Positions 19,330-54,130 of a DNA stretch of 64,000 nucleotides are shown in pieces. Made by a program: the position numbers and the translations under genes. Under the pieces are notes generated by a model, which saw nothing but the letters and a program-made list of their open reading frames with translations, made no database searches and was not told where the DNA came from. Positions within the stretch are counted from its first letter, which is position 1. Each line of letters starts with the position of its first letter. This DNA comes from an uncultured Actinomycetes bacterium (GTDB lineage: Bacteria; Actinomycetota; Thermoleophilia; RBG-16-64-13): assembly GCA_963706025.1 (NCBI GenBank), contig CAVPLM010000006.1, positions 1-64,000 of the forward strand, given 5' to 3'.

Positions 19330-22256
19330 CTACAGGAGCTGGAAGCCCGCCCGTATAGGGAGCGGCGTTCTCGAGCGCCTGCAGCGCGGTGATCACCTCA
19401 CCGAGTCGCTTGATCTTCTCTCCGTAGGTAGCCCAATCGTCGATTCGCTGGGCGGCCCGCGCTTCCTCGTAGAGCTGCTCGGCCAGGTCGAGAAGGGCCG
19501 CGCGATCGGTCGGAAGCGTCCCCGAGATCGTCGTCGTGGTCGTGCCCGGCGGGCACCGTGGTCGTGGTCGCTGAGGGGATGGTGGTCGTGGTGGCCCCAG
19601 GGACCGTGGTGGTTGGACCAGAGGGTACCGTGGTGGTCGGACCTGTGGGGGTGCCGGAGAAGATGGTATCGAGCGCCGACGGCAGGTCTTTCTCCATCAC
19701 CACCACATCGCCGTATGCAACGATCACCCGGGTCAACTCGGGGATGGCGCCGCTCTCAGACTGAAGGTACAGAGGCTCCACATAGATCAGCGAATCTTCC
19801 ACCGGTATGACCAGGAGATTCCCCCGTATCACCTCACTCCCCGCTTGGTCCCACAAGGTGAGTTGGGACGAGATGACAGGATCATTGTTGATGCGAGCTT
19901 CCACCTGGGCAGGGCCGAACACCAGCTTGTCCTTGGGGAAAGCGATGACGACCAGCTCTCCGTACTTGTCGCCGTCCATGCGGGCGGCCATCCAGGAGAC
20001 CATGTTCTGCTTGGTGCGGGGGGTGAACGGCTGCAGGAGCACGAACTCCTCCTCGACCACGCCGGGCAGGGCCATCACCAGGTAGTAGGGCTCGACGATC
20101 CTCTCTTCCTCCCCGTACATCTCCGTCGCGATCTGCCACACGTCTTCTTTGTTGTAGAAGATCTGTGGCTCCGTCATGTGGTAGACGGAGAGAGTCTCCG
20201 CTTGGATACTGAAGAGATCCTCTGGATAGCGCACGTGCCGGCGGATGTCGTCGGGCATCTCCCCGCCCGGGGTGAAGAGCCCGGGATAGATCTTGCCCCA
20301 GGTAGTGGCCAACGCATCGTCGGGATCCATTTGGTAGAAGGTCATGTCGCCGTTATAGGCGTCGATGACCACCTTGATGGAGTTGCGGATGTAGTTGAGG
20401 CCGCCTGGACTCGGCTGCGAGTTAGGGAAGCGATCGGTGGTGGTGTAAGCGTCCCATATCCAGACAAGGCTGCCGTCGTCACGCATCGCGATGTAGGGAT
20501 CTCGGTCGTACTGCAGGAATGGGGCGATGGTCTGCACCCGCTCGGCGAGCGAGCGCCGGTACAAGATGCGGGAGTCGGGCCGCAGGTAGTCAGAGACCAG
20601 TAGCTTGATCGTGGCGAAGCGCACGCTGAAGATGAGCTGGCGCGGAAAGCTACCGATGTCCACGCCACCAGTCCCCTCGTACTCGGCAAACACGTTTTCG
20701 TCGCCCATGGGATAGTCGAACTCTTTGGCGGTCGTGTTGACCAAAACGAAGGAGTCGGGGACTTCTCCATAGTAGATCTCGGGGCGCGTGACGCTCAGAG
20801 ATGTCTCGCTTGGGGGGGTATGTCGCGCACGAAAAGCTGCGGAAGCCCCTGCTCGGTCGGCCTCGCTCACCGGGCTGACCACCACTCCGTATCCATGCGT
20901 GTAGGTGAGGTGCTGGTTGACCCAGGTCTGGGCCTGGCCACTCAGCTTCGAGTAGTCGAACTCCCGGGCCGCGAGAAGGACCTGCCGGTACATATCGTCG
21001 ATGACATAGCGGTCGACATCCACATCAGTGAAGGTGTAGTAGGTGCGTATCTCCTGTATCTGCCGGTAGGTGTCCAGCGCCGGGCTGGGATCCCACACCC
21101 TGACGTTATCGAGGGTGGCGGCGTTAGCCGCGATGGAGTCCGCGTCGAGATTGGTGTTCGCTTCGAACGGAAACGTCTTCACCTCGTTCAACCCGAAGGC
21201 CCAGCGCGTCGAGCCGATGTTGTTGGCGATGTAGGGGGTCTCTTTCTCGATCTCTGTGGGCGACACTCGGTACTGCTGCACGATGGCCGGGTAGATCTGC
21301 CCGGCGAAGAGCCAGGTGACGAACAATAGCCCGATAGCCAAGGCAGGGAGGCGCCAGCCCTTGAAGTAGATATTGATCAGGAACAGAACGGCTGCGATCG
21401 CGGCGACGATGGCCAGGAAGCGCAGGACCGGTATCTGTACGTTCACATCGGTGTAGCTCGGCCGAAGGTGACGCCGCGCTCGGAGTAGGCCAGACCCCAC
21501 ACCCCAGGAGGTAATCCACGGCCTTGCCCAACATCGCCACGGCCAGGATGACCGACAGGTGTGCCTTCACGTGCGGTGCCGCGCGCAAGCTGCGCCCCTC
21601 CACGCGGATCGCTCGATGGGAGATGTAGATACCCAGGGCTCCCAGAAAGCTGAAGAAGAAGCAAAGCATCACGAAGGTCAAGACCATGCGGGCGACGGGC
21701 AATGTGAACACGAAGAAGGCCGCATCCCGACTGAACACCGGCGCACTGAAGCCGAAGTCGACCTGCCGGAAGAAGAGCCATATCCGCTCCCAGGATCCAG
21801 CGTAGCCCACGGCGAATATCACTCCCAACACGATGGAGATCGCGAGGAATAGGCGACGACCTCGCCGAGTCTGAGTGTCGACAAGTTCGTAGACCTCACC
21901 CTCGGTATCGCCGGCCGGTCTCACCTTGGGTACGAAATACCGGGCGAGCCGTAGGTTGCCGTAGAAGATGGCGAAGAACACGACACCGCGGCCACCATGA
22001 CCACGAGCGGCGCCCAGATCCTGGTCCAGAAGACGGTGGTGAAGCCCATCTCTTGGAACCAGAGATAGTCGGTGAAGAATCGGGAGACCACCCACAAGAG
22101 AACGACGAGGATGATGATCCCCAGCGGGACGAGAACGGCCGTCCGGCCCTTCCAGCTCGCGCCCCGCCACCAACGCACCAGGCCTTGCAGTTGATCCGCC
22201 GGCGTCTTGGGTCCCGCGCCGCTCCCTGCTCCGCCATTCTCGCGACCGGTAACCAT
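19330..22256 (-). CDS. UPF0182 family membrane protein (several frameshifts)
   Basis: FTDYLWFQEMGF, FFVFTLP, SYTDVN, DVDVDRY, WVNQHLTYTHGYG, NYIRNSIKVVIDAYNG, RYPEDLF, YVEPLYLQS, DWATYG; 3' end uncertain. Confidence 0.92.
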
Positions 22257-22315
22257 GAGGCCTCCTTCTTGCGCCAGGAACTCGCTGCGCCTGGCCCCGG
22301 TAATCTACCACATAG

Positions 22316-32815: not shown

Positions 32816-33864
32816 ATGACAAGATTCGGCCGCTTGCTCCTACTGGCAACTCTCACGGTCGCCGTATTCGTTCTGTGGGCCTCGGTGGCTCTTGCCCACG
32901 TGCCCCAGCTTCCGGATAGGGGCCCTACCCTTGAGACCGCGACCGTGGTGGACGACCCCGCCACTTCCTGGGTTTTCTACGGCACGAGCGAGAGCCCGGG
33001 CGAAGTGTGGTACTACCGGCTGGACCTTAGCTCGGGGGACCGGCTCTATCTGCAACTCCTGACCCCAGGACCTGAGGGCTTCTGTCCCACCCTGGCTGTC
33101 ATGGGTCCCGGGCTGACGCCCGAAGGTCAGTTGCCCGATTTCGTCGAGACGCCGGCGGAGGCCTTGGGCGAGGAGGTGCCGATCGTGGTCAAGCAGGGCG
33201 ATCTGGGCGAAGCCGAATATGAAGCGTTCACACCGGGTGCCTACTACTATCCGGCAGAGATGGACATGCCGGCGCCGCAGGACGGCACCTACTATGTGGC
33301 CGTCTTTGACGAGGAACTGGCGGGACCGTTCGGCCTGGCGGTAGGCTACGAGGAGAAATGGACACTGCCGGGCTGGATCCGTCTCCCCGCCGACCTGCTG
33401 TCGATCTATGCGTGGGACCGAGGTTGGGCGGTCGCTCTCGCGCCCGGCATCGCGGTGCTTGTCGTAGGGGCAGGGCTGGTCCTATGGAGGCTGCGCGCGG
33501 GACGGAAGAAGCATACCTGTCCGGATGGCTGGCGGTTGCGGCCGGTCTTTTCTGCCTTGCTACCTCCGCTACCGTTCTTACCCAGATGCTGCTGGCAGCC
33601 GGCCGGAGCGGCTTCGACCCGACCATGGCGATCACCGGATTCTTCCTGGTCGCCCCGGCGGTCATCGGAGGACTGCTCATATGGGTGGGTCGGCGCTCCC
33701 GGACTGCCTCGACCGTCGGTACGAGGATCCTGCTACTGGTTCTCGGCCTGGTGGGCCTGGGCTTCTGGGCCGGTTATTTCGTGGGTCCTATCCTCGCGAT
33801 CGCCGCCGCCGCGGCTCCGCCCTACCGGACGCACGTGCCGGAGGGAAGCACCTCGGTCGCTTGA
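32816..33864 (+). CDS. Hypothetical exported/membrane protein (frameshift near 33510)
   Basis: Signal peptide ALA-HVP; YEAFTP; GTYYVAVF; FGLAVGYEE; C-terminal TM helices continue in ORF 33358..33864. Confidence 0.75.
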
Positions 33865-38907: not shown

Positions 38908-39552
38908 ATGCTTGTCCGTGACCGAATGTCCAAGAATCCCATCACCACCTACCCCCACGCGAGCGTGCCCGACGCGCTACAGGTGATGCGCGGGAGCAAA
39001 GTCCGCCAGTTGCCCGTGCTCACGGAAAAAGGCGAGTTGATCGGCATCGTGTCTCTGGAGGATCTGCTCAGAGTCTCGCCATCGCCTGCCACCTCACTGA
39101 GCGTGTACGAACTGAACTACCTACTCGAGAAGATGAAGGTGGAAGACGTGATGACGCGCGAGGTCATCACCGTCACCCAAGACATGGCGCTGGAAGAAGC
39201 CGGGCGCATCATGGCCGACAACAAGATCAGCGGCGTGCCGGTCCTGCGTGACGGAGAACTGGTCGGCATCATCACCGAGACCCACCTCTTCAACGTTCTC
39301 CTGGAGCTCTTCGGCGCTCGCGAACCCGGTGTGCGCGTCGTCTTCCATATCCCCGAGGTGAAGGGGACATTCGCCAACATAACCGGGGCGATCTCCGCCC
39401 AGGGTGGCAGGATCATCGCCTTCGGCGAGGCGCTCGGCGCTCCGGGCACGAGAACGGTGACCATGAAGGTGCAGGACGTGGAGCGCGAGGCCTTGCTTGA
39501 CGCCATCCGGCCTTTCGTGCTGGATATCGAGGACGTCCGCGAATCGCAGTAG
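38908..39552 (+). CDS. CBS-CBS-ACT domain protein (AcuB-like)
   Basis: MLVRDRMSKNPIT, SPSPATSLSVYELNYLL, LVGIITETHL, C-terminal ACT-like region. Confidence 0.92.
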   Translation: MLVRDRMSKNPITTYPHASVPDALQVMRGSKVRQLPVLTEKGELIGIVSLEDLLRVSPSPATSLSVYELNYLLEKMKVEDVMTREVITVTQDMALEEAGRIMADNKISGVPVLRDGELVGIITETHLFNVLLELFGAREPGVRVVFHIPEVKGTFANITGAISAQGGRIIAFGEALGAPGTRTVTMKVQDVEREALLDAIRPFVLDIEDVRESQ

Positions 39553-40388
39553 CTGGCCTGAACGCTGCCATCCTTGAACGGGCCCGCCACTGGGGCGCAT
39601 CGCTTGCAGGGTTCGCCGCGATCGCCGATCTGAGGGCGGCGCCGTCCTTCACGTTCGCCCCCAGGCTGCTCCTCGAGGCGGGCGCTGGGGTCGCCACACG
39701 TTGGAGCAGGCTGGGCCTGGAGCCCGGTGAAGTCGCCTGGCCGGAGGGCGCTCGAAGCGTGTTGGTGATCGCAGTCGAGCACCCGGTGGACCGGCCGGAG
39801 ATGGACTGGTGGTTCGGTCGTTCCGACCCACCCGGGAATCGGATCCTGGCAGATACGATTCAGCGGCTTTGCGACTGGATCCCGGAGGCCTTCGGCATCC
39901 GGACCTTCCACCTGCCCTACCACGTCGAGAGGGGTGGCATATACCTCAAGGATGCGGCGGTCGTGGCGGGTCTGGGGTGCATCGGGCGCAACAACCTGCT
40001 CGTTACCCGGGAGTACGGTCCTCGGGTCAGGTTGCGGGCGCTGACTCTGGACGTGGACCTGCCGTCGACCGGCCCGCTGCCGTCGACCGGCCCGCTGGGA
40101 TTCGATCCCTGCGAAGGGTGCGATGCACCGTGTTTGCGGGCCTGCCCTCGGGGCGCGTTCGACCGGCGGGTCTATGATCCCGCGAAGGTGGGTCCGAACG
40201 TGGGTCCGGGACAGCTGCCGGGAAGGACCGGGCACTTCTCGCGCGCGGCATGCAATATCCAGATGGAGGCCGATATCGAGAACGCCGTCGAGCAACCCGG
40301 CGGGGGCGGTGACGACTGCATGAAGATCGTCAAGTACTGCCGGGCATGCGAGCTCAGCTGTCCCGTGGGGTCGGCGGAGCGCCTGTAG
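39549..40388 (+). CDS. Epoxyqueuosine reductase-like 4Fe-4S protein
   Basis: LKDAAVVAGLGCIGRNNLL, YGPRVRL, CEGCDAPCLRACP, CRACELSCP; the frame is open and plausibly coding from about 39549 (ARHWGASLAGFA), but the first canonical start is 39759. Confidence 0.82.
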   Translation, partial: VAGLNAAILERARHWGASLAGFAAIADLRAAPSFTFAPRLLLEAGAGVATRWSRLGLEPGEVAWPEGARSVLVIAVEHPVDRPEMDWWFGRSDPPGNRILADTIQRLCDWIPEAFGIRTFHLPYHVERGGIYLKDAAVVAGLGCIGRNNLLVTREYGPRVRLRALTLDVDLPSTGPLPSTGPLGFDPCEGCDAPCLRACPRGAFDRRVYDPAKVGPNVGPGQLPGRTGHFSRAACNIQMEADIENAVEQPGGGGDDCMKIVKYCRACELSCPVGSAERL

Positions 40389-40520
40389 CTGGGGGAGTGA
40401 AACCAAAGGACCGAGCGGCTCGTCGGACAATACCAGCGGTGGCTCTACCGGGACGACCGGGTGCAAGCGCTGATCCGGACGGAAGCTCTGAGAAGGATCG
40501 AGGAATCGAAAGGAACTGTG

Positions 40521-41339
40521 ATGACGCTCACGCGTCGTGGACTACTGAGGACGATAGGAGTGGTGGTGATGGCTTTCAGCTTCGCGTTGGGATTGGGTGG
40601 TCTCTTCGGAGGTTGCGGCGGTTCGGCAGCGACCGCGCCCGAGAACGACTCGCGTGTGGAGTACCGCCTCCTCTGGATCAGGAGGTGCCTGGCTCTTTCC
40701 AGACGGCATCGTTCGCCCTTGGCTGATTCTGGGGCGCTGAGGCCCAGTTTGGGTGCCTCGACGGAGTCATAAGAACGCGGGTCGGTTACACCGGGGGAAC
40801 GAAGGAGAACCCTTCCTACTACAGTCTGGGCGATCACACCGAGACCGTGCAACTGGATTTCGACCCCTCGCGGGTGACTTACGAACAGCTGGTGGAGACC
40901 TTCTTCGCCAGTCATGACGCCTCGCGTGGGTCGTTCAAGGTCCAGTACATGTCGGCCATCTTCTTTCACGACCTCGAGCAGGAGCGGATCGCGCGGGAGG
41001 TCAAGGCCCGTCGTAGAGAAGCAGACCGGACGGACTCTTCAGACCAAGATCCTCGCGGCCTCCACGTTTTACATGGCCGAGGACTATCACCAGAAGTACG
41101 CGTTACAGGGTGACAGACGGCTATTCGGAGAGTTCCGACAGATGTATCCGGATCTTTGGGCGATGGTCGATTCGACGGCTGCCGCGCGGGTGAACGCCTA
41201 TCTGTACGGATACGGTTCGACCGAGCAATTGCGGGCCGAGTCGGACCGCCTGGGGCTTTCCGCGGAGAGCAGAGCGCGCCTGCTGGATATGGCCGATAGA
41301 TTGGAGCCGGTGGGCTGTCCACTGCCCACCACGAATTGA
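40521..41339 (+). CDS. msrA: Peptide methionine sulfoxide reductase A, probable selenoprotein with export signal (indels near 40650 and 41010)
   Basis: FALG-TGA-FWGAEAQFG, RTRVGYTGG, NPSY, DHTETVQLDFDP, QYMSAIF, FYMAEDYHQKY; leader TRRGLL...FGGC. Confidence 0.9.
40739..40759 (+). promoter_or_regulatory. Candidate bacterial SECIS hairpin
   Basis: GAGGCCCA-GTT-TGGGTGCCTC; apical-loop G lies 20 nt after the TGA at 40724-40726. Confidence 0.6.
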
Positions 41340-41347
41340 GCCTAGTT

Positions 41348-42472
41348 TTAACGTTCCGGGCGCGGGCGCTTGAACCGCGGCTTGAGCGAGAGCTCGTACG
41401 TGCGGCGTAGGGTGGCTTTCCGGGAAGGGTAGAGCAGAGCCCCGACATCTGCAGGCAGATCGACGACGGCCGTGCCCGGCGAAGACGCCACGCGGGCGTC
41501 GAAGCCGCACGCCCTCCTCGGGGCTCGGCCGGTCGCGCCAGGATCCAGAGGACTTCCAGTGCGGCAGCGCCGTAGGTGGCGACCTCCTGCCGGCTCTCCA
41601 GGATCTCGAACCCGTTGATGAGAGACAGGCGGGCCAAGGAGTTCCTGGTGAAGAAGTTGACATGGGTGACCGGATCAGCCTCCAATCTCACTCCCGCCCA
41701 TATCTCCTGGGGCACCTCGGCATAGAGCACCCCTGAGGGGTCAAGGTGCCGCCGGAAGAAGTTCACCAGGCTGGTGAGGTCACTCACGTGCTCGAGGACG
41801 TGGCTGCAGATGATCAGGTCGAACGCCTCATCTCCGGTGAAGGCGTCTCTGGTGAAGCCGCCCATGTCGTCGCAGATCTTGGTCACGCCGGAAACCGGGT
41901 TGTCGTTATAGTCGATGAGGTAGCAGGAGTGCCCGCCGGCTACGAACGGTTCCAGCAACTTGCCGTTACCACCACCGTAGTCGAGCACTCTCAGCGCGCC
42001 GCCGGAGCTGAGGTAGGGCATGCACCGGTCACGGACCCGGCCGGCCCTCATGAGGTCAGAGCGCAGCGCTCGGGAATCGTAGCCGGCCTGGCCGCCGACG
42101 TCAGGCTCCACCTGCTTGAGGTAGGCGTATTTGGCGGAGACCTCTTGTTCCGTGGGCCGAGGAGAATAGGCCATGAACCCGCATGCGGTGCAGTGGACAG
42201 AGGTCAAGCGTGGTGGTCTCTGCGGTGGGAAACCACACCTCGAACAGGACCTTTCTCCGCAGGAACTGGTAGCTGCTCACGCTGCGGCAGGCGACCGGCC
42301 TTCTCCTGGGGCGGGCGAGGAGCAGGGTACGGCCGGCCGTCTTGACCCTGCGCCAGAAAAGGGTGAGGGGGAGAGCCCTCCCTCCGAGATGGTCCGTCCG
42401 GGCATAGACGAAGGTCTCCACGGGAGACCAATCCTGAGTTCCACAGACGGGACATGCGAAGGTGTCGAGCAT
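41348..42472 (-). CDS. Class I SAM-dependent methyltransferase with N-terminal Cys pairs (frameshifted)
   Basis: CPVCG and CTACG; VLDYGGGNG; CSHVLEHV; YAEVP; HVNFFT; indels near 42200 and 41490. Confidence 0.85.
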
Positions 42473-42528
42473 TTGTCTGGCTGTCCGGTCTATACTCGGT
42501 GAGGCGTGGACACGGAGGGGAGCTTCTC

Positions 42529-44043
42529 ATGCGGCGTCACAGATTTCCAGGTCTCGTGCTCGGCTCGGCCGTCTTACTTGCCGTCGCGCTGATATGCGGC
42601 GCATTATCGGGGTCTGGTCAGGTGCTTGCCGCAGGCACCCGTGCCGCGGATGCTATGCCGGCACAGCAGCTGTCGGCCGCGACGGCGGACGACGACATTC
42701 CTGGCGTCTCGCTCGCGGTGGGAGCGACCGTCTCGGGGACGGTGACATCGGCGGATGCCGGGGATGTCTATGCCGTGATCCTTAGCGAGGGCGAGGAAGT
42801 CCATTTTCGCTGCGATCCGGGGAAGGCCGGCAGCGCAGAAGGGATCTTCCATTTGCTGGTGCCGGGGGCCGTATCCGTGCAGAACCCAGGTCGGTATGAC
42901 GAGGTGGCCTACAATCTGATCGCCGGCAGCCCCACGCGCCACTGGGCCGACTTTGACTACGTGCCGGCACGATCCGGCACCTACTACCTCTGGGTGGATT
43001 GGAAAGACGGCACCTTGGACTACGAGCTGTCGGTGAAGCGCACGTCTCGGGCCGCGCTCGATCTTGTCTCTGACTCCGACGATATCCCGGGGACTCCGGT
43101 AGGTTCCGGTACTCTCGAGGGTATTGTCTCCGCTCTGGCCGACCCGGACGACGTGTATGCCGTCGTGCTCACTGCGGGTAAGCCGGTGACGGTGCAGCTC
43201 ATGCCCCTCACGCCTTACGGCAACACCATCTCGGCCCTCGCCTACCTCATGCTGCTCGATCCGGACACGGTCAGTCTTGCCGACACCGGCAACCGCGCGC
43301 TGGTGGGGCCGGTCCAGGCGAGGAACAGCAAGGAAGCGTACACGCGGCAAACGGCCGAGATCCGCTACATGCCGGCGAGGACAGGCACCTACTTTGTCCG
43401 CGTGCGGGCGGGAAGTGTGCCTTATGGCAGCAACTTCGCTTATCGGCTGCGGATACTAGGGAGTGGGGGTGCCGTGGAGCCTCCGGACTTCTCGGACGTG
43501 GCGGATTCCCCCTATGCGTCGGCCATCTACGAGCTGGCCGCCCGGGGGATCGTCTCTGGTTTCGTTGACGGTACCTTCCGTCCGGGCGAACCGGTGAGCC
43601 GCCAGCAGTTCGCCAAGATGATCGTCAGGACTCTGGGACTCAGCGTCACCGGCACCGAAGTCTGCCCCTTCCCTGATGTAGGCAGTGGGATGGACCCCTT
43701 CGACCCGTTCTATCCGGACAAATACGTGGCGGTTTGTGGCGTCCATCGGATAGCCCAGGGCTATGCCAACGGGACTTTCGGGCCCTACGACCGCATCCTG
43801 CGCCAGCAGCTGATCAGCATGGTGGCGCGGGCCGCGGCGCTGCCGGGCCCGCCCGATGGTTACGTGCCCGAGTTCTTGCCGGGGCAGTTCTATCCCGATG
43901 AACACTACCTGAACGCCCGCAAGGCCGCCCATGCCGGACTCCTGGACGGACTGCCGGGAGTGGGTCCCTCCTACGATTTCTATGCTCCCTCGAGCCGGGG
44001 CGAATGCGCCCAGGTGTTGTACAACTTGCTGGAGAGGCAGTAG
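42529..44043 (+). CDS. Secreted SLH-domain protein with two PPC-like beta-sandwich repeats
   Basis: Signal peptide; repeated DDIPG...DVYAV.L...PAR.GTY; SLH FSDV...GIVSGFVDGTFRP...SRQQFAKMI. Confidence 0.88.
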   Translation: MRRHRFPGLVLGSAVLLAVALICGALSGSGQVLAAGTRAADAMPAQQLSAATADDDIPGVSLAVGATVSGTVTSADAGDVYAVILSEGEEVHFRCDPGKAGSAEGIFHLLVPGAVSVQNPGRYDEVAYNLIAGSPTRHWADFDYVPARSGTYYLWVDWKDGTLDYELSVKRTSRAALDLVSDSDDIPGTPVGSGTLEGIVSALADPDDVYAVVLTAGKPVTVQLMPLTPYGNTISALAYLMLLDPDTVSLADTGNRALVGPVQARNSKEAYTRQTAEIRYMPARTGTYFVRVRAGSVPYGSNFAYRLRILGSGGAVEPPDFSDVADSPYASAIYELAARGIVSGFVDGTFRPGEPVSRQQFAKMIVRTLGLSVTGTEVCPFPDVGSGMDPFDPFYPDKYVAVCGVHRIAQGYANGTFGPYDRILRQQLISMVARAAALPGPPDGYVPEFLPGQFYPDEHYLNARKAAHAGLLDGLPGVGPSYDFYAPSSRGECAQVLYNLLERQ

Positions 44044-52637: not shown

Positions 52638-54130
52638 CTAAGAGAAGTACTTCTCCAGGTCGACGTCGACGAACTGTGAGCGCTCGAAGACGTCCTTCAT
52701 ATGAAGCGGCACCGTGCAGTCGAAGATGGTCTTGCAGGTGATGCCCGGGCCGGGCAACATCGGGTTGTACTCGGGGGTGGCCGACGGGTCGAGGGAGTGG
52801 CCGCGCACACCCGGTATGAATATGGTGTCCACGTCTCCCTGGTACCGGGTGGTCATGGCCCACATGACGTCGGCCGAGTCGTAGGGGTCGATGTCGTCGT
52901 CCACCAAGATCACGTGCTTGAGCTCGTAGAACGCGGCGAAGGCGGTCAGGGCCGCCTGCCGCTGCAGTCCCTCATCGGTGGGCTTCCGCTTCCTTACCTG
53001 CAGGATGGCCAGGTACTTGCCGCCGCCGGCCGAGTGGCAGTAGACGTTTTGGAGGAAGCCGGGTAGGGCGTCCTCGATCAGCCGGTAGATGCTGGCCTCG
53101 GTAGGCAGGCCGGTGAGGGTCACGTGCTCCTCGCCGGGGCCGACCAGGATCTGGTAGATGGGATCGGTGCGGTGGGTGATCGCCGTCACTCTCAAGACCG
53201 GCAGATGGGGCTGAGCCTTCCCGACGTAGCCGGGGAATTCCGGCATAGCCCAGCCGCTCCCGGTCAGTGCGTCCTCGTCGGCATACTCGCCCGGCCTGAA
53301 CTCGCCCTCGAGGACGATCTCGGCCCGGGCGATGGTCTTCGTTGCTTGCGTGAGGCAATCGACCAACTCCACCGGCCGCCCCCGCAGGCCTCCGGCGATG
53401 GTCAACTCGTCGAAGCCGAGGGGCGTTGTCGGCGCTTCGAACGAGGTGGCCACGTAGATGGCCGGATCGAGACCGATGCTCACGGAGACGGGTAGGGGCC
53501 TGCCCTTCGCCTCGGCCTTGAGCCGGAACACGTCGATGTGCCTACCTGGGGTGAAGCTGACGCTCATGCTGTCCGGCCCGTGGATGCACATGCGGTGGAT
53601 GGTGACGTCGGAGACCCCCGTCTCGGGGTCCTCGGCCCGGAGCAGGGCCATGTTGAAAAAGGGCCCCGTGTCTTTCGTGGTATTGATGATGGGGGGGATG
53701 ACCTCGCGCAGGTCGAACGGGGGCCTTGATGACCACTTGTTGGCAAGGGGCCTCGGCCGCCGCCACCGTCACGGGGAGAACCGGTCGGTCCAGAGGCGGC
53801 AAGAAGATCGAACATCAGGCGTTCCTTGGAGCTGCCCAGGAGTAGAGCGGTGCGCTCCCGACTGGCCAAGACACCGGCGACCACTCTCATCTTGTGGCCC
53901 TTGACGTTCTCGAACAGCATGGCCGGGCCCACCTGGGTGGGGGGCGCCGTAGGGGTGCCGGAGCCCACCCGGCGGTAGACGCCGGCCAACTCCATGTCGG
54001 GGTCCACTTCCACCTTGGTCGACACGAGTTGTCCGGGGATGTTCGCCAGGAAGTCGAGAGCCGAGCGCAAATCGGTGATGTCGCCGGCCTTCATAGGGGT
54101 CTTACCGGCCTGGGACTGCGAACTCTCCAT
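52638..54130 (-). CDS. UbiD-family decarboxylase, AroY/LpdC (protocatechuate/gallate decarboxylase)-like (frameshifts 53720-53800)
   Basis: PTQVGPAMLFENVKG; DVTIHRMC; AMPEFPGY; GEEHVTLTGLPTEASI; AGGGKYLAILQV; WAMTTR; LDPS; CKTIFDCTVP. Confidence 0.9.

Follow-up and report, generated by a model that had tools for sequence, protein, structure and literature searches.

Is an in-frame TGA in the middle of a broken gene the end of that gene, the mark of its decay, or the active site of a selenoenzyme that the cell sends to its surface? The question is raised by positions 40521 to 41339 of a 64,000-nucleotide stretch of DNA (the window: positions 1 to 64,000 of contig CAVPLM010000006.1, assembly GCA_963706025.1, forward strand) from an uncultured actinomycete of the class Thermoleophilia. 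The genome is a 30-contig assembly, 92% complete with 7.3% contamination. We consider it rather likely that the locus is a selenocysteine (Sec)-containing peptide-methionine (S)-S-oxide reductase (MsrA) of the two-domain Clostridium oremlandii type, that it carries an N-terminal lipoprotein signal, and that the two frame breaks interrupting it are most likely errors of the consensus sequence.

An in-frame TGA at the catalytic position of an MsrA

When the three phases of 40200-41700 were translated with TGA written as U, a single MsrA gene emerged, spread over three pieces in two phases (40521, then 40520, then 40521 again). The first piece opens at ATG 40521 with a leader and a lipobox and runs into a Gly/Ser/Ala/Pro linker. 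From within 40656-40672, phase 40520 carries the conserved P-P-P-L-D, the motif G-U-F-W-G and ~95 more MsrA codons, and phase 40521 resumes within 41009-41015 for the final 108 codons to the stop at 41337-41339. Because of these two breaks, no frame as assembled encodes the enzyme. The original prediction, made from the letters alone, had placed the TGA at 40724-40726 (GGC TGA TTC TGG GGC) exactly at the catalytic Cys of the MsrA motif, in a frame that goes on through further MsrA motifs, and family searches bear this out: the window core matches Pfam PMSR (PF01625) at E 3.3e-30 (105.8 bits against a cut-off of 23.7), and the last piece matches the end of PMSR plus PF20939 (23.8 bits against a cut-off of 23.7). 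The NCBIfam scan names msrA (TIGR00401). The intact ortholog of congener G003 scores 143.3 bits on PMSR and 123.1 on TIGR00401 (cut-off 108.1), a cut-off under which the window pieces fall because the gene is split; on PF20939 the G003 protein stays below the cut-off at 19.4 bits, and several close database homologs contain that domain. The best solved relatives (4w8c, 4lwj-4lwm, 4u66 and 7c13, all at ~3e-30) share a near-identical active-site stretch, FALG-C/U-FWG..AQFG, and these entries are, we take it, the selenoprotein MsrA of C. oremlandii. By its sequence the gene ranks with the Sec-type MsrA of the two-domain C. oremlandii kind. A search of genome contigs for related loci returned 45, only two of which are true orthologs (in the congeners G003 and G002); 41 of the 45 are ordinary Cys-type MsrAs and two lack the motif.

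That the UGA at 40724-40726 is read as Sec is very well supported by the gene complement and by comparison among relatives. The genome of the window encodes SelA (506 bits), SelB (304 bits) and SelD (388 bits), together with a tRNA-Sec of anticodon TCA (UCA-type, 79 bits); selA and selB are adjacent (G000:C3:273492-277185), with the tRNA-Sec gene ~11 kb downstream (C3:287980-288072). Across 41 related genomes, 20 of the 35 match rows hold exactly one TGA, all 20 of them in the window's own family and every row at 49% identity or more being one of them, and the rows without a stop are Cys-type MsrAs at 30-47% identity from other families of the class, except for one extra copy in G024. Within the family, 41 of 61 genomes have a match, and TGA occupies the site in every row that covers it at 46% identity or more. 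All told, every close ortholog, across 15 of 19 genera, has the TGA flanked on either side by conserved MsrA sequence. Contigs from four metagenome runs, representing four studies of freshwater, sediment and freshwater sediment, span the site at 90-99% identity; among their listed differences 40724-40726 is unchanged, and 40714 and 40720 are listed as changed. The Sec machinery, the conserved TGA and the metagenome contigs therefore support Sec decoding without any need of the downstream hairpin to which the original prediction had also appealed. RNA runs X18-X20 contain only 6-7% of the sampled words.

The prediction that standard gene callers would split such a gene also proved correct. The database proteins closest to the Sec forms are calls of 160-190 amino acids that begin after the TGA, so that both leader and active site are lost and the export signal is invisible in protein databases. 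Separately, the selD gene (G000:C5:742679-743602, minus strand, locus L011) itself holds one in-frame TGA, and selenophosphate synthetase is thus probably a selenoprotein too.

A lipoprotein-type leader in the frame of the enzyme

In both matching congeners, G003 and G002, a single frame of 272 codons runs unbroken from the leader through the linker and the Sec enzyme to the predicted helical domain. The leader thus belongs to the same open reading frame (ORF) as the enzyme, as the original prediction had supposed, and the elements then described, TRRGLL, a hydrophobic stretch and FGGC, are there, with the start at ATG 40521 and 21 uncharged residues in the stretch. Read from the translation, the window leader has a positive N-region, a hydrophobic core and a lipobox ending in Cys. 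We surveyed leaders in the best 30 of 49 rows of family loci (L099-L128) with a simple pattern that asks for an uncharged stretch and, directly after it, four residues resembling a lipobox with Cys in last place; since the query itself bears a leader, this choice of 30 favours leader-bearing copies. The pattern flagged 21 of the 30, the copies of G062 and G075 seem by eye to have such a leader too, and the remaining seven are leaderless, as are most of the lower-scoring rows beyond the best 30; the same family therefore also includes leaderless Sec orthologs. To judge from these translations, the family has a conserved lipoprotein-type selenoenzyme, and the leader is the commoner form among the family loci surveyed. 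The suggestion that such an export signal is the unusual part in this lineage goes too far, since the leader is not confined to this gene and Cys-type lipoprotein homologs are frequent among metagenome proteins. The genome encodes LspA (one gene), Lgt (two), TatC (one) and a CcdA/DsbD_TM gene, and we infer from the leader that the enzyme would be exported and lipidated.

By which route it would be exported is a further question, which the original prediction had answered with a twin-arginine translocation (Tat) leader. On that account the selenoenzyme would be translocated folded and then lipidated, and the account has something to recommend it: T-R-R-G-L-L stands close to the N-terminus, the G018 leader has Q-R-R-F-L-R, TatC is encoded, Actinobacteria commonly export lipoproteins through Tat, and some selenoproteins take the same route, for example Escherichia coli formate dehydrogenase-N. 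The Tat assignment itself found no support, in that Pfam and NCBIfam scans of the leader and of the G003 protein (E up to 0.1, 0.01 and 1) found no Tat-signal family. An RR pair precedes the lipobox in only 10 of the 30 loci by a crude pattern and is missing from several leaders (G005, G022, G020), and MsrA has no cofactor that would require folded export. We regard Tat export as a minority possibility, if one of some substance.

Two frame breaks and their likely origin

The original prediction had noticed a single apparent indel near 40650. That break stands, within 40656-40672; a second, within 41009-41015, had been missed. Neither is present in G003 or G002, where the gene occupies one frame each. 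At the first break, contigs of runs X1, X2 and X8 omit 40661 and 40663, and an X4 contig has several indels with a net change of -2 over 40647-40672; the frame is restored in each. At the second, contigs of X1, X2 and X4 omit 41011 and another X1 contig omits 41013, again with the frame restored, and the window reads at 41009-41015 as though two variants that occur separately in run X1 had been merged. Compared with G003, each in its own frame, the three pieces give ratios of nonsynonymous to synonymous substitution (dN/dS) of 0.27, 0.07 and 0.19, that is, purifying selection throughout.

The msrA gene is not alone in this condition. Six of 27 long G003 ORFs with a window counterpart change frame in the window; in the reverse comparison four of 21 do, three of which mirror the same breaks. 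One of the broken genes is a UPF0182 gene (window 19358-22312, minus strand), a single 1018-codon frame in G003 (5e-291) to which the window copy is 90-93% identical over most of its length. In the window it passes through frames -1/-3/-2/-3/-1, and of its seven gap positions against G003 six consist of one base and lie at or beside short base runs. A Methyltransf_23 gene that adjoins msrA (41363-42526, minus strand) has two frame changes relative to an intact 407-codon G003 ORF.

Since the relatives and four metagenomes lack the breaks and other genes of the contig carry similar indels, the breaks are probably consensus errors, and we would with fair assurance put them down, from these alignments, to a strain-mixed or thinly covered contig. 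If so, the organism probably has an intact gene. Programmed frameshifting was considered and rejected, because no relative carries the breaks.

Further frame changes against intact G003 ORFs lie at ~33460-33508 (in a 367-codon ORF) and at 53726-53801. On a small contig, G000:C13:7054-7627 (minus strand, L097/L098) has a weak DsbD_TM match over two frames and may be a frame-shifted gene. In another genome of the family, the Sec-MsrA ortholog G044:C13:190525-191305 likewise changes frame near residue 95; the 41 genomes matched include no further case.

The downstream hairpin as a candidate SECIS element

A hairpin at 40739-40759 had been put forward as a bacterial selenocysteine insertion sequence (SECIS), with its loop G 20 nt from the TGA. 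The hairpin is there, with that spacing (loop G at 40747), and it recurs at the same place in 17 of 17 folded orthologs. Its stability is another matter: the z-score against dinucleotide shuffles is -0.31, and, set against 1000 synonymous recodings per sequence, the observed fold lies below the recoded mean in 16 of 17 orthologs, while the share of recodings folding equally well runs from 0.03 to 0.75 and is under 0.05 in 2 of 17. When the hairpin is treated as fixed alignment columns, 73.1% of cells pair, the figure for shuffles being 71.3%, and 101 of 500 shuffles reach the observed value. One compensatory pair (C-G to G-C, at synonymous third positions) occurs in G007 and G024, which belong to the same genus. 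Such column-wise pairing tests are weak, because across the orthologs the helix sits in three registers, slightly shifted from one another. Over 40400-41500 no Rfam family was matched (E up to 1). RNAalifold, applied to the 17 orthologs, chose another helix, one that pairs the UGA itself and has compensatory changes in 0 of 9 pairs, and this candidate was set aside.

For the most part the hairpin follows from the conservation of the peptide E/D-A-Q-F-G. Downstream of the active site A-Q is retained in the Sec forms, where Cys-type homologs have S-L, S-R, A-R or A-S; this fits a constraint at the RNA level and is not a test of one. With a stability not beyond what coding or chance would give, the hairpin is compatible with a SECIS, no more.

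Candidate resolving cysteines, a proposed reductant and the neighbourhood

Besides the lipobox Cys, the window protein has two candidate resolving Cys, one at Sec+10 and one in a C-terminal G-C-P. By eye, Sec+10 is the sole position of such a Cys in 10 of the 30 family loci and the C-terminal tail in 13; two (G003 and G002) have it in both places and five in neither, so that at least one of the two is found in 25 of 30. These near-exclusive positions suggest a resolving Cys that moves between sites and hence a thioredoxin-fold reductant which, outside the cell, would presumably be fed by CcdA. In G015 a TGA aligned with the G-C-P Cys was considered as a second, C-terminal Sec and rejected: as the open frame continues past it for more than 100 codons, it is taken to be the stop.

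In the window as in G003, msrA lies among genes for a CBS protein, a methyltransferase, an SLH protein and an Fe-ADH, together with an ORF that matches nothing in Pfam. The genes beside it in five other genera bear no relation to these (a pyridine-nucleotide disulfide oxidoreductase fragment, a dihydroxy-acid dehydratase, SLAC1, PFK, an OLD-family ATPase and a serpin). The SLH-domain wall protein, ~1 kb from msrA, is merely a neighbour. Encoded at 42454-44043 on the plus strand, it has 529 residues, a signal-like N-terminus and C-terminal SLH domains (matched on the G003 ortholog), and its presence implies that the cell wall carries SLH-anchored proteins. The upstream ORF (39357-40388, plus strand) has Cys-rich CxxC motifs near its C-terminus, and the 366-codon ORF that corresponds to it in G003 matches no Pfam family (E up to 0.001). 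Residues 47-183 of the G003 protein P0001 give a partial match, at 4e-12 and far below the cut-off, to NF041383, a family named 'VPGUxxT family thioredoxin-like (seleno)protein, type 2'; NF041383 may therefore join an MsrA-like region to a Sec-thioredoxin fold.

Contrary evidence and competing explanations

Several observations weigh against an intact, exported selenoenzyme at this locus. The lipobox residues at -3 and -2, F and G, are not the commonest ones. Of 1000 synonymous recodings of the window peptide, 14% fold as well as the observed hairpin or better, and statistically the fit to a SECIS carries no weight by itself. The window, G003 and the five other genera share no conserved redox partner beside the gene. 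This gene is the sole PMSR match in the 92%-complete genome, and the single MsrB frame has no space for a leader and looks cytoplasmic, so that, were MsrA exported, none would be left in the cytoplasm. The rpoB, rpoC, selA, selB and selD genes, all on other, large contigs, are unbroken, which means that indel errors are not genome-wide and must be local to this contig. Finally, congener G001, though 95% complete, has no match, so the genus does include losses of this gene.

The last two observations, together with the plain presence of the breaks in the assembly as given, are what could be said for a true recent pseudogene, that is, for real breaks in a strain that has lost MsrA. Such a history sits badly with relatives and four metagenome assemblies (90-99% identity) that lack both breaks, and with the low dN/dS kept in all three pieces. 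It would also have to extend to the other conserved genes of the contig, with some seven one-base indels in UPF0182 and two frame changes in the methyltransferase, and the simultaneous decay of so many genes is hard to explain; nor would it account for the apparent merging of two X1 variants at 41009-41015. We think a pseudogene unlikely and continue to favour consensus errors in an intact gene.

The want of a cytoplasmic MsrA could be met in another way, if the hydrophobic N-terminus were an uncleaved anchor or if a second, downstream start gave a cytoplasmic form that kept MsrA activity there. In-frame GTG codons do lie between the lipobox and the catalytic motif, and the family also has leaderless Sec orthologs. 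The Cys after the hydrophobic stretch, however, is kept in 21 to 23 of the 30 loci and across many genera, which points to lipobox function; a start beyond P-P-L-D would drop residues that the leaderless orthologs retain, and there is no evidence of an internal ribosome-binding site. We therefore hold both variants to be quite improbable beside a cleaved lipoprotein. That the TGA is an ordinary stop between two separate or defunct genes, as standard gene callers and the database entries beginning after it would have it, is scarcely credible given its position exactly at the catalytic residue, the MsrA sequence conserved around it in close orthologs of 15 of 19 genera, the complete Sec machinery and a closest solved relative that is presumably a natural selenoprotein.

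Features of the locus and a proposed mechanism

The features of the locus are collected in Table 1. A scan of 40300-41500 for promoters and terminators found none.

Table 1. Sequence features of the msrA locus, in window coordinates
Feature	Coordinates	Strand	Remarks
Purine-rich AAAGGAA, candidate ribosome-binding site	40509..40515	+	6-12 nt 5' of the ATG; proposed from sequence only
Lipoprotein-type leader, phase 40521	40521..40616	+	TRRGLLR N-region, 21 uncharged residues, L-F-G-G-C
Lipobox Cys codon	40614-40616	+	End of L-F-G-G-C; Cys32
Gly/Ser/Ala/Thr/Pro-rich linker into the conserved P-P-L-D of the mature domain	40617..40690	+	Piece dN/dS 0.27, the highest of the three
First frame break, phase 40521 to 40520	40656..40672	+	Net +2 bases relative to related contigs
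MsrA (PMSR) catalytic domain, interrupted by the second frame break	40706..41108	+	Profile match
In-frame TGA, predicted Sec in G-U-F-W-G (40721-40735)	40724..40726	+	Catalytic position
Candidate SECIS hairpin	40739..40759	+	Seven pairs, one bulged U, apical loop AGUUUG
Candidate resolving Cys (FGC), Sec+10	40754..40756	+	Cys there in 12/30 loci by eye
Second frame break, phase 40520 to 40521	41009..41015	+	+1 base relative to related contigs
PF20939 selenoprotein MsrA helical domain match	41172..41264	+	E 3.9e-5; weaker in G003
C-terminal Cys (G-C-P), second candidate resolving Cys	41316..41318	+	C-terminal Cys in 15/30 loci by eye
Stop codon	41337-41339	+	Phase 40521

We propose that the UGA would be decoded as Sec by SelB and tRNA-Sec(UCA), with the downstream hairpin likely serving as the SECIS. 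The precursor would then be exported, lipidated and cleaved at Cys32 by Lgt and LspA, and so tethered on the outer face of the cytoplasmic membrane, where it may reduce Met-S-sulfoxide in surface and secreted proteins. The resulting selenenic acid would probably be resolved by the Cys at Sec+10 or by that of the C-terminal G-C-P, and re-reduction may come from a thiol-disulfide relay fed by CcdA. Whether all this can be extended to the family at large we judge to have slightly less than an even chance: the main or only MsrA of Gaiellales-like Thermoleophilia would then be a lipid-anchored extracytoplasmic selenoenzyme, the first exported Sec-dependent Msr, with a movable Cys and a CcdA-fed relay in place of glutaredoxin.

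Comparison with known systems

To our knowledge, the only Sec-MsrA that has been characterised is a cytoplasmic enzyme from an anaerobic Firmicute, free of Cys and dependent on glutaredoxin, and extracytoplasmic Msr systems are known only with Cys. The architecture of the window protein recurs in Cys-type lipoprotein homologs among metagenome proteins (P0019, P0022, P0027, P0039, P0046 and P0062), which have the same hydrophobic leader ending in Cys, linker, P-P-I/L-D and G-C-FWG, match the G003 protein at 44-54% identity over ~90% of its length and in some cases match PF20939. They differ in that Cys replaces Sec, they bear generic names or none, and we know of no study devoted to them. Exported selenoproteins as such are familiar, E. 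coli formate dehydrogenase-N being one. The substrate-binding selenoproteins of the SAO system likewise indicate, in the part of that preprint used here, that signal or lipoprotein signal peptides are possible on bacterial selenoproteins (bioRxiv 10.1101/2022.07.06.499078). Both have folds and functions unrelated to those of the window protein. Full-text searches of the literature, supplements excluded, turned up no account of a Sec-MsrA that is exported or a lipoprotein, and a 2026 review of prokaryotic selenoproteomes has MsrA only as a GUFWG/H selenoprotein, with 'signal peptide' and 'periplasm' not in its text.

The closest functional model is the enzyme of C. (Alkaliphilus) oremlandii (CoMsrA), which the portion of its description drawn on here gives as a protein of 209 residues with Sec16, no Cys and an essential extra helical domain, recycled by glutaredoxin and not by thioredoxin (PMC4333827). 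Like CoMsrA (4lwj-4lwm, 4w8c, 4u66, 7c13), the window protein has Sec in G-U-FWG followed by a DAQFG stretch, and it resembles CoMsrA, so far as the same portion goes, in joining a catalytic domain to what is probably a C-terminal helical one. Unlike leaderless CoMsrA, it begins with ~55 residues of leader and linker, lipobox included; unlike CoMsrA as a Cys-free, 1-Cys enzyme in that portion, both it and the G003 protein have Cys at Sec+10 and at the C-terminus; and unlike the source of CoMsrA, it comes from a lineage of high-GC actinobacterial metagenome-assembled genomes.

Tethered repair of envelope proteins has its own precedents in Streptococcus pneumoniae MsrAB2, which works with Etrx lipoproteins and CcdA, and in the MsrAB proteins of Neisseria and Haemophilus, as far as the sections consulted describe them (PMC3914529, PMC9404787, PMC6372556). 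The likeness to those surface or periplasmic systems, on the same sections, is one of (predicted) location only: they use Cys, are built as MsrA-MsrB fusions, with or without thioredoxin, and lie in operons with thioredoxin-like partners, whereas here MsrA stands by itself, uses Sec and has no conserved partner.

For practical purposes, Sec-MsrA genes are systematically mis-called, their entries beginning after the TGA, and local indel errors in assemblies of this sort can pass for pseudogenes. If our reading is true, a lipoprotein Sec form in uncultured soil and sediment Actinomycetota would put a selenoenzyme at the cell surface and ask what reduces its selenenic acid or selenenylsulfide outside the cytoplasm. 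Set against known systems, Sec-MsrA is itself already known; what is new is its conserved lipoprotein form in uncultured Actinomycetota and, with it, the question of an extracytoplasmic reductant.

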